The notes under the pieces are model-generated. The model did not search any database, had not been told where the DNA came from, and worked only from the letters and a program-made list of their open reading frames with translations. DNA of 64,000 nt from Variovorax sp. GTDB taxonomy: Bacteria > Pseudomonadota > Gammaproteobacteria > Burkholderiales > Burkholderiaceae_C. The first letter of the stretch is position 1; the number at the start of each line of letters is the position of its first letter. Made by a program: the position numbers and the translations under genes. This document shows positions 3,375 to 61,573 of this stretch, one piece after another. The DNA lies in the NCBI GenBank assembly GCA_965218415.1, contig CBDCKT010000003.1:1896904-1960903 (forward strand). Reading direction: 5' to 3'.

Positions 3375-4637
3375 TCAGCCGGCGTGCTCTGCGCCGTGCG
3401 GCGCGGAAGGCACTGCCTCGCCAGCGCTGCGAAACGGACTGCGGCCCTCGAGATGCTCCATGTAGTTCTCGATCCCCGCGCCCTCGCGCTCCAGAAAGCG
3501 CTCGATCGCATCGGCGAACGCCGGATGCGCGAGCCAGTGGGCGCTGGTGGTTTTGACCGGCATCAGCGCGCGCGCCATCTTGTGCTCGCCTTGCGCGCCG
3601 CCCTCGAAGCGCGTGATGCCGTGCGCGATGCACCACTCGAGCGGCTGGTAGTAGCAGGCTTCGAAGTGCAGGCAGTCGACGCGCTCGAGTGCGCCCCAGT
3701 AGCGGCCATACGCGACGCCTTGCGCGGAATTTGAATCAAAAGTGCTTGAAACGTCCGATGGGCCTGCGCTGACAGCTATCAAACTCGTAGCAATCGGATG
3801 ACCGTCGCGCTCGGCGATGAACATGAGCCAGGCTTCGGGCATGGTCTGCGCGGTGCGGCGGAAGAAGTCGCGCGTGAGGTAGGGCGCGTTGCCGTGCTCG
3901 CGGTAGGTGCGCGCATAGCAGCGGTAGAAAAAATCCCAGTCGGCGTCCGTGATGTCGGTGCCGAGAGACCAGCGAAAAGTAACGCCCGCGTCACGCACTT
4001 TGCGCCGCTCTTGCCTGATTTTTTTGCGTTTGTCGTGCGCGAGGCTGGCGAGGAAAGCGTCGAAGTCGGCAAACCGCTGCGGCGCGGCATGGCCGGGCAC
4101 CGTCGGCGCGATGTTCTGCCAGTGAAACTGCACTGTGTGCCGCAGCATCAATCCGGCGTCTTCGCAGGCGGCAATGTCCTCGTCGGCTGCGAACAGCAAG
4201 TGCAGCGACGACAGTTTTTCCTGCTCGCACCATTGAACGAGACCATTGACCAGCAACACCCGGCTTTCGGCGTCGCGCGCAAGCAGCCGTGCGCCCGGCA
4301 CCGGCGTGAACGGCACTGCGACCAGCGCCTTCGGGTAGTAGGCGAGACCGTGCTGCTCGTAGGCGTTGGCCCACGCCCAGTCGAACACGTACTCGCCGGA
4401 AGAATGCGACTTCAGATAGACCGGGCAGGCCGCTTCGATTGACTCGCCACGGTGCAAGGTGACGAACGCGGCTTGCCAGCCGCGCTCGGGCGTTGCGCTG
4501 CCGCTTTCGTGCAGCGCGCTCAGGTATTCGTGCCGCATGAACGGCGACGGGGATGACTGCAGCGCGAGCAGGTCGTTCCACGCGGCCTCGTCGATTTCCA
4601 ACGGCGAGTGGTGAATGCGCAAAAAAAGATCGGTCAA
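3375..4637 (-). CDS. FemAB-like GNAT family protein (DUF482 type), carries an in-frame repeat copy
   Basis: HSSGEYVFDWAWA, GRYWG, CLHFEACYYQ and FEGGAQGEHK motifs; start placed at TTG 4637 (inferred). Confidence 0.85.
   Translation of the reverse strand: MTDLFLRIHHSPLEIDEAAWNDLLALQSSPSPFMRHEYLSALHESGSATPERGWQAAFVTLHRGESIEAACPVYLKSHSSGEYVFDWAWANAYEQHGLAYYPKALVAVPFTPVPGARLLARDAESRVLLVNGLVQWCEQEKLSSLHLLFAADEDIAACEDAGLMLRHTVQFHWQNIAPTVPGHAAPQRFADFDAFLASLAHDKRKKIRQERRKVRDAGVTFRWSLGTDITDADWDFFYRCYARTYREHGNAPYLTRDFFRRTAQTMPEAWLMFIAERDGHPIATSLIAVSAGPSDVSSTFDSNSAQGVAYGRYWGALERVDCLHFEACYYQPLEWCIAHGITRFEGGAQGEHKMARALMPVKTTSAHWLAHPAFADAIERFLEREGAGIENYMEHLEGRSPFRSAGEAVPSAPHGAEHAG
3728..3791 (+). repeat. 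64-bp dispersed repeat, copy 1 (inside the GNAT CDS, antisense)
   Basis: AATTTGAATCAAAAGTGCTTGAAACGTCCGATGGGCCTGCGCTGACAGCTATCAAACTCGTAGC. Confidence 0.85.
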
Positions 4638-4795
4638 ATGCGGAATCGGGCGGTACGGCAGGAGGCGACAGTGTAGGAACGATTGTGAAACCCTGCGCCG
4701 CGCGGGCCGTGCGCCGAAGCTTCGATGCCGCCGCGGCACGCCGAATAAGATCGTGCTTCGCTTTTGCTCCTGACACTGCCTCGACCCGCTTGCCC

Positions 4796-6523
4796 ATGCC
4801 GCTTCAATTCGCCATCGCCCAACTGAACTTCGTCGTCGGCGACATCGCTGGCAATGGTCGCCTGATCGCGCGCGCTGCGCGCGAGGCTTATGCGCAGGGC
4901 GCGCGCTTGCTCGTCACCCCTGAACTCGCGATCTGCGGCTATGCGGCCGAAGACCTGTTCCTGCGCCCGGCGTTCATTGCCGCTTGCGACGAAGCGGTGT
5001 TGCAGCTTGCGAAAGACCTCGCCGACTTGCCCGGCATGGTGGTCGTGGTCGGCCATCCGACCGGCGGCGGATTGCGCGGGCGATCGGTGCAGGTGCAGCG
5101 GCGCTACAACGCCGCGAGCGTTCTGCGCGACGGCCGCGTGCTCGAAACCTATGCCAAACGCGAACTGCCGAACTACCAGGTGTTCGACGAGCGGCGCTAT
5201 TTCGCGCCGGGGTTGGGCACTTGCGTTTTCGAAGCGGGCGAGGGCGCCGACCGGATGTCGATCGGCTTGCTGATCTGTGAAGACGCCTGGTTCGATGCAC
5301 CGGCCGAACTTGCGAAGGCCGCCGGCGCCGAACTGCTGGTCGTCATCAACGCCTCGCCGTTCCATATCGGCAAGGGCGGCGAGCGGATTGCGCGGATGGC
5401 CGAGCGCGCACGGGCGGTGGCGCTGCCACTGGTCTATGCGCATCTGGTCGGCGGGCAGGACGAAGTGGTTTTCGACGGCGGTTCGTTCGGATTGAATGCG
5501 AACGGTGAACTCGCCTTCCACGCCCAGCGATTTGAAGAAAAAGTGGTCACAGCGCAAGCTGGACGTGCGCAGACAGCTATCGAATTAATAGCGTCGGCTG
5601 ACGATATGGAGCGCGCCCATGTGTTCCGTGACCCCGAGCGCGACCTGTGGGATGCGCTGGTCATGGGCGTGCACGACTATATCGGCAAGAACGGCTTTCC
5701 GAGCGTGATCCTCGGGCTTTCGGGCGGCATCGATTCGGCGCTGGTGCTCGCGATCGCGGTGGACGCGCTCGGCAAGGACCGGGTGCGCGCACTGATGATG
5801 CCGTCTCCCTACACGGCCGACATCAGCTGGATCGACGCGCGCGAGATGGCCAAGCGACTCGGCGTGCGCTACGGCGAAATTTCGATCAGGGACACTTTCG
5901 AGTCGTTCAAATCTGCGTTGGCCGACGAATTTGAAGGCCTCGCCGAAGACACGACCGAAGAGAACCTGCAGGCGCGAATCCGCGGCACGTTGCTCATGGC
6001 GATGTCGAACAAGTTCGGCTCGATCGTTCTCACCACCGGCAACAAAAGCGAAATGGCGACCGGCTATTGCACGCTCTACGGTGACATGGCGGGTGGTTTC
6101 GCGGTGATCAAGGATCTGCTCAAGACCAGCGTGTTCGCGCTCGCGCGCTGGCGCAATGCGCACGACCCCTATGGCACGGGCAGCGAGCCGATTCCCGAGC
6201 GCATCATCACGCGCCCACCGAGCGCCGAATTGCGCGCCGACCAGACTGACCAGGACAGCCTGCCGCCCTACGACATACTCGACGGCGTGCTCGCGCGCTA
6301 CATGGAGGACGACCAGAGCATCGAAGAGATCATCGCGGCCGGTTACGACCGTGCGGTGGTCGAGCGGGTCGCGCGGCTGATCAGAATCAACGAGTACAAG
6401 CGGCGTCAGGCGCCGGTTGGCATTCGCGTAACGCACCGCAGTTTCGGCAAGGATTGGCGTTACCCTATCACCAGCAAATTCAATGAAGCGGCCCTGCGGC
6501 CCACCGGAGACCCGAAGCCATGA
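4796..6523 (+). CDS. nadE: Glutamine-dependent NAD+ synthetase
   Basis: N-terminal CN-hydrolase domain ([24 protein letters not shown]); synthetase motifs [30 protein letters not shown]. Confidence 0.96.
5529..5592 (+). repeat. 64-bp dispersed repeat, copy 2 (in frame in the nadE interdomain linker)
   Basis: GATTTGAAGAAAAAGTGGTCACAGCGCAAGCTGGACGTGCGCAGACAGCTATCGAATTAATAGC, encoding [21 protein letters not shown]. Confidence 0.9.
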
Positions 6524-6858
6524 AACAGATCACCGCCATCGTCAAACCGTTCAAGCTCGACGAAGTGCGCGAAGCGCTGGGCGAAATCGGCGCCACCGGT
6601 TTGACGGTGACCGAAGTCAAGGGCTTCGGCCGGCAGAAAGGGCACACCGAGCTCTATCGCGGCGCCGAGTATGTGGTTGATTTTTTGCCCAAAATGAAAA
6701 TCGAGCTGGTCGTCGAAAGCGATGCGGTAGAGCGCTGTGTCGACGCGATCGTCACCGCCGCGCGCACCGGCAAGATCGGCGACGGCAAGATTTTCGTCAC
6801 CAACATCGACCGGATCGTTCGCATCCGCACCGGCGAAGAGGACGAAGCGGCGATTTGA
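6520..6858 (+). CDS. glnB: P-II nitrogen regulatory protein
   Basis: 112 aa; [19 protein letters not shown]-loop with Tyr51; GKIGDGKIF; ATGA overlap with nadE. Confidence 0.95.
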
Positions 6859-60544: not shown

Positions 60545-61504
60545 TCAGCGGCAACTGTGCCAGCCGCCCGTCTCCAGATGGAAATGATCGCGATGGACCG
60601 CGTTGTAGTCGGGCCCGAGCACGCCGTCGAACCAGCGGCAGGCGCCGCGATGGGCTTCGCGCAGCAGCGCCGCGGCGGCACCCGAGCCGCTGCCAGAGCC
60701 TGCAGCAGCGCTGCGCCAGTCTTTCAGCACCGAAACACGGCTGCCGTCCGCCAACGTGAATCCTGCGATGTCGAACGCATTGGCCGTTGCATGGCGGCTG
60801 CGCCGGCCGCCGGCTGCATTCGGCGCTGCGCCATCGCCGGTGTTGACGTTGCGGCAGGCGTAGCTGCCGAAGTTGTCGATCGACACCACCGGCGCGCCGA
60901 AATAAAGCCGGGCCGCGGGCTGCAGCGCATGGCGTTCCCACATCGACAGCGACAGCGCCATTGGGCAGCTCAGTGTTAGCGGCCCGCCGAGGCTGATGGC
61001 CGGTCTTTCCAGGTTGTTTGCGCTGTTCGCATCGTTCACGCCGTTTTTGCCGTCGCCGCGCAGCCGCACCGCGTTCTCGAAGCCGCAACCCGGCGCGGTG
61101 ACGCGATCGGCGATGGATTCGTAGCGCAGGCCGGTCTTCGCCAACGCGGCCAGGCAGGACGCGGGCGTGGCACGAGCGCGCGAGAGCTTGAATCCGGTCA
61201 AAAAATTCGGCGGCGCGTGCGTATCGAGCGGCGCCCAGGGGTTGAATCGATCGGGAATCACCAGTGCGCCGCTGTAGACACTGTAGGCCGCGCTTGCGGC
61301 AACCACGCAGCCGACGAGCGCAAGCCAACGGCCGAGCGGCGGTGCGGACGTGGCGCTACCGCGCTGTGGCGTCGCCGGGGTCGGCGCGGCCTCGTCGGCT
61401 TGCCGCGCAGTGCCGGCTCCGGATTCGGACGGCGCGCCGGATCCGGACGGCGAAGCGTCTTCCGCCCCCTCGTCCGACGCGCTTTCCGTTTTGCTTGTTG
61501 CCAT
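60545..61504 (-). CDS. Extensin-like C-terminal domain protein
   Basis: PWAPLD, GSYACRN, SRHATANAFDI, GVLGPDYNAVHRDHFHL; N-terminal TM; start at ATG 61504. Confidence 0.88.
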   Translation of the reverse strand: MATSKTESASDEGAEDASPSGSGAPSESGAGTARQADEAAPTPATPQRGSATSAPPLGRWLALVGCVVAASAAYSVYSGALVIPDRFNPWAPLDTHAPPNFLTGFKLSRARATPASCLAALAKTGLRYESIADRVTAPGCGFENAVRLRGDGKNGVNDANSANNLERPAISLGGPLTLSCPMALSLSMWERHALQPAARLYFGAPVVSIDNFGSYACRNVNTGDGAAPNAAGGRRSRHATANAFDIAGFTLADGSRVSVLKDWRSAAAGSGSGSGAAAALLREAHRGACRWFDGVLGPDYNAVHRDHFHLETGGWHSCR

Positions 61505-61509
61505 CGTCC

Positions 61510-61573
61510 GATATGAGAAGAAAAGCCTTGAAACCCTTACTGAACATGCGCAAGCAGCTACTATAAACATAGC
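61510..61573 (+). repeat. 64-bp dispersed repeat, copy 13 (between divergent genes)
   Basis: GATATGAGAAGAAAAGCCTTGAAACCCTTACTGAACATGCGCAAGCAGCTACTATAAACATAGC. Confidence 0.85.

Follow-up and report, generated by a model that had tools for sequence, protein, structure and literature searches.

A 65-bp repeat, present in 13 copies in the 64,000-nucleotide stretch of Variovorax DNA analyzed here (the window), recurs about 800 times in the genome, is found across the Comamonadaceae and has kept its positions between species. Taken as a whole, we tentatively interpret it as an ancient, vertically kept duplex-DNA recognition motif of this family, rather than an RNA or a repeat that still transposes. 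In more general terms, it is probably a DNA motif that is read by a protein and held in place by selection or drive.

A dispersed repeat family in the Comamonadaceae

An earlier note, based on the letters of the window, had listed 13 copies of a dispersed repeat without transposon hallmarks and had extrapolated to hundreds or more per genome. A sequence-only covariance model of 118 genome copies (filters off, E ≤ 0.1) recovered precisely these 13 sites, at the same positions and on the same strands, with scores of 41 to 61 bits, and no further copy in the window. The dyad GCTAT-N7-ATAGC, with at most one mismatch, was matched 13 times (0.45 expected), and none of 100 shuffled sequences reached this number. 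Twelve of these matches are family copies and the one at 15135 is a chance match, while the copy at 14353 has two mismatches and therefore escapes the pattern. An nhmmer profile of the 13 copies (E < 1e-3) detected 807 copies in this genome of 4.19 Mb, a density of about one copy in 5.2 kb that bears out the extrapolation. All tests thus agree on a real family.

Of 401 genomes, 101 contained the core pattern, as did 60 of 201 genera, with a reversed-pattern control yielding 0 to 2 matches per genome. The same 65-bp span was found in Polaromonas, Rhodoferax, Curvibacter and Acidovorax; the element is family-wide, and the guess that the host belongs to the Comamonadaceae was right. Copy number differs hugely among species of one genus and among genera, and the sites are missing from most same-genus species.

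Judging by the information profile of the genome copies, the element extends from about -47 to +18, counted from the G of GCTAT, which gives the length of about 65 bp. The right core, TGCGCA-N2-CAGCTAY-N7-RTAGC, is conserved at 90 to 100% across about 800 copies and has the form of a site for a sequence-specific protein. The part kept between species and genera is the right 27 to 30 bp (TGCGCA-N2-CAGCTAY, seven W-rich nucleotides, RTAGCA). The 7-nt spacer, described previously as fixed in length, variable and AT-rich, has these properties genome-wide (97 to 98% A/T at positions 7 to 9), and in the left half A/T patches recur with a phase of 10.5 to 11 bp.

Copies within genes and at gene ends

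The copies of the window are listed with their R1 scores; Pfam was used for domain calls, and the contexts of copies 7, 8, 9 and 13 derive from crude gene calls.

Copy 1, 3727..3795, plus: within a FemAB_like gene (3375..4739, minus), in frame, reverse orientation; 52.3 bits
Copy 2, 5529..5595, plus: within NadE (4796..6523, plus), at the CN_hydrolase/NAD_synthase junction (Pfam), in frame; 56.3 bits
Copy 3, 8462..8527, minus: N-terminal coding part of an RDD-family membrane protein (7976..8719, minus), in frame; 52.2 bits
Copy 4, 14351..14416, minus: between the stop of gene 13319..14335 and a pssA-like start codon (14408); 41 bits
Copy 5, 23275..23342, plus: begins 1-2 nt past the stop of a molybdopterin oxidoreductase gene (20968..23274; Pfam); 58.6 bits
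Copy 6, 24344..24410, plus: 18 nt from the stop of a 2-hydroxyacid dehydrogenase gene (24428..25360, minus; Pfam); 57.6 bits
Copy 7, 26312..26379, plus: divergent intergenic region (25385..26161 minus, 26604..27482 plus); 52.7 bits
Copy 8, 33366..33434, plus: intergenic, 46 nt from the stop of gene 33480..34280 (minus); 61.3 bits, the best of the window
Copy 9, 40423..40488, minus: 20 nt past the stop of gene 40508..42499 (minus); 50.4 bits
Copy 10, 44625..44693, minus: signal-peptide part of a TonB-dependent receptor (42552..44717, minus); 60 bits
Copy 11, 53630..53697, plus: residues 2-24 of a CysN-like GTPase (52294..53700, minus), in frame, reverse orientation; 53.2 bits
Copy 12, 58174..58239, plus: 28 nt past the stop of a patatin-like gene (58267..60396, minus; Pfam); 43.1 bits
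Copy 13, 61511..61577, plus: between 60545..61306 (minus) and 61722..63182 (plus), apparently divergent; 46 bits

Five of the 13 copies lie in frame within Pfam-confirmed genes, which the earlier note had not seen, as it had also not seen the age and positional conservation of the copies or the family-wide spread of the element. The Pfam match PF04339 runs unbroken across copy 1, and the homologous sequence at this site is shorter and GC-richer in genomes G017 and G024. Copy 2 is read as 23 residues of NadE. In the gene of copy 3, PF06271 matches residues 87-233, and the corresponding place in G017 encodes ...LAETPAPIAPTALIAPS... Copy 10 lies just downstream of a TPP riboswitch; the receptor that carries it has Plug and beta-barrel domains (Pfam), with MATSSYNPVFKKKGAETPVLRALTALIFIANAVSVHAQE as the direct reading of the sequence. 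The GTP_EFTU match of the copy 11 GTPase starts at residue 35, and the N-terminus in relatives is unrelated and of low complexity. Genome-wide, the in-frame copies located deep within ORFs number at least 82, of which 45 share the orientation of the ORF and 37 oppose it; copies in genes are tolerated, or were written, in one stop-free frame per orientation. Among the copies outside genes, copy 4 follows a gene that we take to be ilvC and has orthologous copies in G024, G003, G009 and G014 but none in G017; copy 5 lies upstream of a tRNA (23457-23529).

Most copies sit just past stop codons, at a median distance of 30-41 bp, and about 106 stop codons fall within a copy. Among intergenic regions of at least 70 bp, 62% of the convergent ones hold a copy, compared with 27% of the tandem and 16% of the divergent ones. 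Only 18 intergenic regions hold more than one copy, and gaps of less than 1 kb between copies are depleted (64 observed versus 141 expected). Orientation is neutral with respect to transcription (in tandem regions, 190 copies point the same way as the flanking genes and 180 the opposite way) and depends hardly at all on replication, with a weak strand bias (428 plus and 379 minus on three contigs).

This placement, together with the helically phased A/T patches and the neutral orientation, would suit a docking site with an architectural or topological role, functionally analogous to the E. coli REP/BIME/RIP. The core would then be bound at gene ends, above all convergent ones, by a nucleoid protein, gyrase or a roadblock-type termination factor, with selection keeping one copy per region. 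Convergent regions with a copy are also shorter than those without (148 versus 184.5 bp) and contain strong intrinsic-terminator-like hairpins less frequently (29% versus 49%), although the latter comparison is confounded by the smaller amount of remaining sequence in copy-bearing regions. By itself, however, a docking site leaves unexplained the copies over codons in linkers and N-termini as well as the lineage-wide shift of the left half described below, and most same-genus species live without the sites. We consider this explanation rather unlikely.

Conservation between species and concerted evolution

In G016, a genome of the same genus whose genes are only 72-86% identical, 18 copies could be placed by synteny, and 16 of these correspond to a site that also carries a copy here. 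The copies are old and positionally conserved. Weak matches in G003, G004, G009 and G014 nearly all adjoin a copy of this genome, and one copy is kept in the rluC-rne intergenic region across species. Orthologous copies resemble each other more than paralogous ones in the spacer (identity 0.61 versus 0.40) and the flanks (0.43-0.46 versus 0.23-0.30). In the left half, by contrast, identity among orthologues (0.51) is no higher than among paralogues of this genome (0.55), and some positions have lineage-specific states, such as -24 (A in 11 of 16 copies here, G in 13 of 16 in G016). Since the left half differs lineage-wide while the sites are shared, the copies evolve in concert.

At NadE, alignment with 29 Burkholderiales homologs revealed that the motif overlays the native conserved FEE.L..V with only about 10 extra residues. 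This copy is an overlay that mostly replaces native residues and not an insertion, NadE being the only site where decay in relatives can be told apart from build-up here.

The copies might alternatively be relics of a non-autonomous mobile element without terminal inverted repeats or target-site duplications (IS200/IS605-PATE, IS110, IS91 or REPIN-like), or of an element homing to its own dyad by site-specific recombination, amplified long ago, now immobile and slowly decaying. The family does have subfamily structure, and adjacent variable positions are strongly linked (-20/-19 is CC in 466 and TT in 138 copies), which points to copying of whole variants and not to independent point changes. 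The uneven copy numbers between species and genera would fit such a history, and the dyad with its 7-bp W-rich spacer appears to resemble a tyrosine-recombinase core site. However, the copies differ at a median of 29 of 70 positions, and nearest neighbors at no fewer than 6 of 70, mostly 9-22; young copies are missing except for four identical pairs, all within larger duplicated segments. Further, the strict conservation of the core within and between genera is unlike neutral decay, the left half is as alike among paralogues as among orthologues, and NadE carries an overlay. Flanking direct or inverted repeats at fixed offsets did not exceed permuted controls, in agreement with the absence of terminal inverted repeats and target-site duplications noted before, and a search for a parent element found none. 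The earlier note had also seen no cognate transposase; the genome does have a single RAYT-like gene, with a degenerate copy just downstream of it, but the family showed no link to this gene. A RAYT-like gene is carried by 22 of the 24 high-copy genomes, two lacking one, and by 19 of the 24 genomes that have zero copies. The copies are moreover singletons and not inverted doublets. A mobile relic thus appears improbable to us.

An RNA-level element (a 3'-UTR stabilizer, a processing site, e.g. for RNase E, or a weak terminator) is very improbable, despite the location past stop codons, a possible 5-bp stem with a 7-nt loop and the conserved rluC-rne copy upstream of rne, as the genome copies show no base-pair covariation in the dyad arms (inner pairs T:A 466, T:G 163, C:A 130 and C:G 29, with 38 expected for the last), the folding energy is no better on either strand than that of column-permuted controls, copies downstream of and inside genes take both orientations equally often, Rfam gave no match, and a consensus promoter/terminator scan of positions 20001-40000 flagged none of the four copies there. 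The arm deviations, reported earlier as uncompensated in the window, are so genome-wide, which supports the preference for a duplex-DNA site over an RNA hairpin.

Comparison with described repeats

We found no named description of the element, as the earlier note had supposed; the one previous mention that we met is of a spaced motif from a statistical analysis, ATAGCT(N)22CAAAAG in Polaromonas naphthalenivorans CJ2 (Tong et al. 2017, BMC Genomics 18:27; PMC5217627). There, 101 of 125 occurrences were intergenic, 34 between convergent genes, at about 50 bp from genes (PMC5217627). This hexamer pair, called a "potential novel motif" after a statistical screen of one genome, is the same element on the opposite strand, and the spacing CT(G/T)(A/T)(A/T)(A/G)-N22-AGCTAT is identical here and in other genera. 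The 65-bp extent, the family-wide spread, the in-frame copies, the positional conservation and the concerted evolution did not form part of that report. A repeat of Bordetella and several Comamonadaceae, BRE (Hot et al. 2011; PMC3110155), is unrelated in sequence, having 69% GC, a length of 75-91 bp, tandem arrays and T-runs at both ends (PMC3110155).

The uptake sequences of Pasteurellaceae (USS) and Neisseriaceae (DUS) share with the element a copy number of hundreds to thousands, the use of both orientations, a family-wide distribution with lineage "dialects", enrichment at gene ends, stable orthologous sites and helically phased A/T flanks. In coding regions, they occupy tolerated frames and weakly conserved protein parts (PMC2817400), as does the element. 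Unlike their cores of 9-12 bp, the element spans 65 bp, and its linked variants suggest copied units. Like Rickettsia palindromic elements, it is found both between genes and, in frame, within genes for functional proteins; those elements are palindromic insertions of 100-150 bp that add residues, whereas ours is not palindromic overall and mostly replaces residues at NadE. The REP/BIME/REPIN sequences with RAYT of Enterobacteria, Pseudomonas and Stenotrophomonas are similarly abundant, extragenic, located at 3' gene ends, long-lived and vertically inherited. REP/BIME/REPIN are proposed docking sites of host proteins (IHF, gyrase). REPs are palindromic and GC-rich, have compensated stems as well as a GTAG-type tetranucleotide, and often form inverted doublets and flank their RAYT. 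The element differs from them in its uncompensated 5-bp dyad, its solitary copies and its lack of RAYT association.

A motif probably read by a protein and kept by selection or drive

We infer that the motif is read by a protein. Any identity assigned to this protein would be speculative; gene profiling identified no reader, its presence/absence classes having been set by a strict pattern that overlooks diverged copies. A role in DNA uptake gains plausibility from the intact ComEC of this genome and from Verminephrobacter and Acidovorax, which have been shown to undergo natural transformation that requires type IV pili and is seemingly sequence-selective, with no uptake sequence identified (PMC4212676). 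A ComEA homologue, in contrast, was undetectable here, in the genome with the richest motif set, while nearly all relatives have one.

The likeliest single mechanism, though a tentative candidate, would be a molecular drive like that of the uptake signals USS and DUS. The length of 65 bp (in a rough sum, about 60 bits) speaks against this mechanism when compared with known uptake sequences (about 30 bp with flanks), as do the linked adjacent variants and the undetectable ComEA. Further, the enrichment at gene ends and in convergent regions, the single copy per region and the fewer hairpins are just as compatible with a docking site of an architectural or termination-related kind. Long persistence at the same sites, tolerance in genes and concerted evolution together indicate a directional process that acts on all sites at once. 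Under uptake-like drive, the transformation machinery would prefer motif-bearing DNA, and recombination would then spread the motif and maintain it in place.

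Copies and consensus of the repeat

All 13 copies reported in the window by the earlier note were confirmed in the sequence, in position, strand and colinearity over about 65 bp. Allowing one mismatch at most, the dyad GCTAT-N7-ATAGC matched the window 13 times (0.45 expected), and none of 100 shuffles reached that number. Twelve of the 13 matches are family copies and the match at 15135 is due to chance; the copy at 14353 carries two mismatches and therefore lies outside this pattern. A sequence-only covariance model (R1), built from 118 copies of the genome outside the window and run over the window with filters off, returned exactly the 13 known sites at E <= 0.1 (41-61 bits) and no further site. 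An HMM built on the 13 copies and scanned over the 4.19-Mb source genome with nhmmer yielded 807 copies, at a density of about one copy per 5.2 kb on each of its three contigs (C1-C3), and the family is thus real genome-wide.

The information profile places the element at about -47 to +18, counted from the G of GCTAT, with the consensus AATTTTAAGAGAAAAGTGGCTGAAACGCCCGCTGGACGTGCGCAGACAGCTAT-TAATTTA-ATAGCAATT in this genome. The G+C content of the element is 0.37-0.51, compared to 0.635 for the genome. TGCGCA, CAGCTA and TAGC are 90-100% conserved over the genome copies, and the outer four pairs of the dyad are invariant. Its A+T content rises and falls with a period of 10.5-11 bp, which is compatible with DNA bent or wrapped on a protein. 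Compared with the consensus sites of IHF, Fis, LexA, OxyR/LysR, sigma-54 and dif, the dyad fits only the LysR-type T-N11-A geometry.

Tests for RNA structure and mobility

The inner pair of the dyad showed no compensation (T:A 466, T:G 163, C:A 130, C:G 29, the last against 38 expected), and mutual information over all column pairs was high for adjacent columns only. Folding energies on both strands equaled those of column-permuted controls in four sub-regions, among them the middle region, the dyad and the whole element; this test gave no support to hairpins in the middle region that had appeared compensated by eye. A scan against Rfam resulted in no match, neither at the gathering threshold nor at E <= 10. 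A structured RNA or single-strand hairpin is ruled out by the absent covariation, the control-level folding and the lack of an Rfam match. A promoter and terminator consensus scan of window positions 20001-40000 flagged none of the four copies in that interval.

The absence of target-site duplications (TSD) and terminal inverted repeats (TIR), initially noticed in the window, holds for 620 copies, in which no direct or inverted flank repeats at fixed offsets exceeded permuted controls; the element ends have at most AATT in common. With neither TIR nor TSD, and no autonomous IS with the same ends, a MITE is ruled out. Searching for a parent element by split halves recovered one split copy, which proved to be an IS30-family insertion into a copy and not a parent. 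This IS (about 1.1 kb with a transposase ORF, C3:1733430-1734623, outside the window) separates the copy into left and right halves, and it may target the element.

Of 24 high-copy genomes, 22 have a PF01797 (RAYT-like) gene, as do 19 of 24 genomes without copies, which gives no support to a link with the repeat. The one PF01797 gene in the source genome has a single degenerate copy downstream and none upstream. This RAYT-like Y1 transposase gene (C3:909923-910633) directly precedes a gene of 1575 codons (possibly gltB), and a RAYT-like gene is near-universal in the family whatever the repeat content. REP sequences are GC-rich palindromes with a compensated stem, are commonly arranged as inverted doublets (REPINs), and flank and are co-distributed with their cognate RAYT. 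In contrast, the element has only a 5-bp, uncompensated dyad and occurs as singletons. A RAYT-driven REP is ruled out by the singleton copies, the presence of only one degenerate copy beside the RAYT-like gene and the lack of co-distribution. The BRE of Bordetella and Comamonadaceae is likewise ruled out as the identity of the element, since the published sequences are GC-rich, tandem and unrelated to it (Hot et al. 2011, PMC3110155). Overall, the tests support the initial interpretation as a dispersed family without transposon hallmarks, and as a duplex-DNA site over an RNA hairpin.

Placement at gene ends and within genes

Based on our own crude codon-usage gene calls, 219 intergenic copies are located in convergent, 76 in divergent and 370 in tandem regions. 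Among intergenic regions of at least 70 bp, those between convergent genes contain a copy in 62% of cases, tandem ones in 27% and divergent ones in 16%. Copies in tandem regions are oriented with and against the genes about equally (190 vs. 180). Only 18 regions contain more than one copy, while a Poisson estimate gives about 80 for convergent regions alone; gaps of less than 1 kb between copies occur at half the expected frequency, and the 8 of 804 neighboring pairs that are at most 400 bp apart show no preference in orientation. The median distance from a copy to the stop codon of the neighboring gene is 30-41 bp, and about 106 genes take their stop codon from the element, at a few fixed element positions. 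Over the three contigs, 428 copies are on the plus and 379 on the minus strand, and any bias with respect to the replication strand is weak.

Read in either direction, the consensus offers just one frame free of stop codons. Copies deep in ORFs, in frame and flanked on either side by coding signal, number at least 82, of which 45 share the orientation of the ORF and 37 are reversed. Five of the 13 window copies, numbered 1-13, are within Pfam-confirmed genes.

Window copies within genes, and RNA features of the window
Copy 1: FemAB_like gene, inside the domain match (Pfam)
Copy 2: NadE, at the CN_hydrolase/NAD_synthase junction (Pfam)
Copy 3: RDD family protein, N-terminal region (Pfam)
Copy 10: TonB-dependent receptor, signal peptide (Pfam)
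Copy 11: CysN-like GTPase, N-terminus (Pfam)
12716-12783, plus strand: ilvH RNA leader (Rfam, 85 bits), upstream of a small ORF (12791..13282) followed by a gene (13319..14335)
44782-44893, minus strand: TPP riboswitch, controlling the TonB-dependent receptor whose signal peptide derives partly from copy 10
50309-50419, minus strand: second TPP riboswitch

The small ORF and the gene downstream of the ilvH leader are presumably ilvH-ilvC. An 11-bp stretch from the start region of a pssA-like gene recurs, inverted, on the flank of the window copy next to that gene (ATCGTCATGC ... GCATGACGAT).

NadE, the sole locus compared with outgroups, was aligned with proteins from 29 other Burkholderiales families and from the compared genome G024. 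The 23-residue stretch encoded by the element overlies a native FEE.L..V.. segment found in all aligned proteins, and the source NadE is about 10 residues longer than its relatives, while the motif spans 22 codons. With a native segment beneath and only about 10 extra residues, the motif is not a simple insertion. At this locus it overwrote codons that were already there, or else went in together with a matching in-register deletion. In-frame presence in functional genes (FemAB_like, NadE, RDD, TonB receptor, CysN) resembles that of the Rickettsia palindromic element (RPE). However, the RPE is palindromic and adds a peptide by insertion, whereas the element is non-palindromic overall and NadE gained only about 10 residues for 22 codons.

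Conserved sites and concerted evolution

The closest copies differ at no fewer than 6 of 70 positions, except for four identical pairs inside larger duplicated segments. Nearest-neighbor copies mostly show 9-22 differences of 70, and the median over all pairs is 29. The identical pairs share flanks of at least 140 bp and are located at contig ends (C2:1463428/C2:48399, C1:1449/C2:71638, C2:1569/C3:2425286 and C2:1466879/C2:44958), which indicates either segmental duplications of larger extent or contig ends that overlap.

Other genomes of the genus, 5-9 Mb in size and with gene identities to the source genome of about 75-85%, contain 0-1 matches to the strict pattern, by which presence and absence classes are defined, and 0-11 weak model matches. 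The exception is G016, a same-genus species with genes 72-86% identical, which has at least 50 copies. Where synteny was usable, 16 of 18 G016 loci have a copy at the matching place in the source genome, and nearly all weak matches in four further genomes (G003, G004, G009, G014) adjoin a source-genome copy. Examples of shared sites are those upstream of rne, upstream of the pssA-like gene and at C2:1174560. The copy between rluC and rne (C2:~1049561), in rne orientation, precedes the start codon of RNase E by about 200-240 nt and is kept in same-genus species otherwise without the family.

At the sites of three in-frame window copies, the compared genomes G017 and G024 have recognizably homologous sequence that is GC-richer and partly shorter; divergence at their intergenic empty sites was too great to define the element ends. 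At the position equivalent to window 14336-14407, between the upstream and pssA-like genes, G024 carries a pair of strong terminator hairpins and a longer spacer before its element copy; in G017 both the element and the additional spacer are missing.

Orthologous pairs of the source genome and G016 had flank identities of 0.43-0.46 (baseline 0.23-0.30) and a spacer identity of 0.61 (baseline 0.40). In the right core (TGCGCA-N2-CAGCTAY-N7-RTAGC) identity was 0.82, compared to 0.85 for random within-genome pairs, and in the left half it was 0.51 compared to 0.55, so that in the left half orthologs are no closer than random source-genome copies. Position -24 is A in 11 of 16 source copies and G in 13 of 16 G016 copies, and positions -26 and -3 shift likewise. 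The sites are conserved in position while the copies undergo concerted evolution.

Distribution in the family

The core pattern was present in 101 of 401 sampled family genomes, belonging to 60 of 201 genera, with the reversed pattern giving 0-2 matches per genome. Counts were 514 in the source genome (0 for the reversed pattern) and at most 262 elsewhere. The source genome, the richest in the repeat of the 401, is far smaller (4.19 Mb, 63.5% G+C) than most sampled same-genus genomes (5-9 Mb). Named records with the element include Polaromonas, Rhodoferax, Curvibacter, Acidovorax, Ottowia and Candidatus Aalborgicola. The 134 sites from named family records cover the same 65-bp span, with the consensus ...CAAATaGGCCTcTAGCCCaCGTagAacgTGCGCAAGCAGCTAT-tAAATta-ATAGCAAat; the family consensus elsewhere reads AAG where the source genome reads AGA. 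Three plasmid records, unannotated for it, and no phage records contain the element.

The earlier note knew of no named description. One prior mention exists, the spaced motif ATAGCT(N)22CAAAAG of P. naphthalenivorans CJ2, referred to as a "potential novel motif" (Tong et al. 2017, PMC5217627); otherwise, we found no publication. The CJ2 motif has 125 copies, 101 of them intergenic and 34 between convergent genes (PMC5217627). Its spacing is identical to that of the element. The element is not peculiar to the source genome, and is a family-wide, essentially uncharacterized dispersed DNA signal with unusual behavior.

Candidate mechanisms

The element is a primary-sequence, duplex-level feature that is orientation-free, positionally stable and evolving in concert, and its right 27-30 bp are the part conserved across species. 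Probably a sequence-specific protein reads it, and a genome-wide directional pressure, either selection or drive, holds all copies near a lineage-specific optimum. The leading specific mechanism, which we put forward tentatively, is a drive similar to that of the DNA uptake signal sequences of Pasteurellaceae (USS) and Neisseriaceae (DUS). Like these, the 807 copies are strongly over-represented genome-wide in both orientations, occupy stable orthologous sites, form lineage dialects across the family and occur in coding sequence in tolerated frames, overlaying native residues in NadE. In these respects the element matches USS and DUS. It is possible, if still doubtful, that Comamonadaceae capable of natural transformation use the 65-bp motif as their signal for DNA uptake (self-recognition). 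In Verminephrobacter and Acidovorax, transformation depends on type IV pili and is apparently sequence-selective, with the uptake sequence not identified (PMC4212676).

Several observations count against an uptake drive. The motif far exceeds known uptake sequences in length, and its blocks of linked variants point to copying of entire units. Additionally, a ComEA homolog was not detectable in the source genome, where only a Tex-like HhH protein (C3:2044510) was found, despite an intact ComEC (C3:1637747-1638595); in almost every relative there is a small ComEA-like ORF. As markers of the presence and absence classes, competence genes were rejected: ComEA occurs in motif-rich and motif-poor relatives, ComEC is near-universal, and neither separates the classes.

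The main rival, which we consider rather unlikely, is that the element acts at gene ends as a docking site with an architectural, topological or termination-related role. It is supported by the rule of one copy per region, the enrichment between convergent genes and a partial anti-correlation with intrinsic-terminator-like hairpins. An old, now immobile transposon relic is improbable, since the conserved core and the concerted evolution agree poorly with it. An RNA function is very improbable, given its poor fit with the neutral orientation.

If the uptake-signal reading is true, the element would add a third family of uptake sequences to the known two, one of independent origin and unusual length. 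It would then account for the sequence-selective transformation reported in Verminephrobacter and Acidovorax, and its dialects would mark DNA-exchanging lineages. In practice, the element accounts for the fragmentation of assemblies of these genomes and for their odd in-frame segments. It is a rare case of a long DNA signal that outlasts species in place, evolves in concert and is imposed on coding sequence, in signal peptides, linkers and N-termini. If about 800 conserved sites in each genome are read by one protein, whether to make DNA uptake specific, to shape chromosome topology between convergent genes or for termination, that protein would be a missing piece of biology in the large and ecologically important Comamonadaceae.
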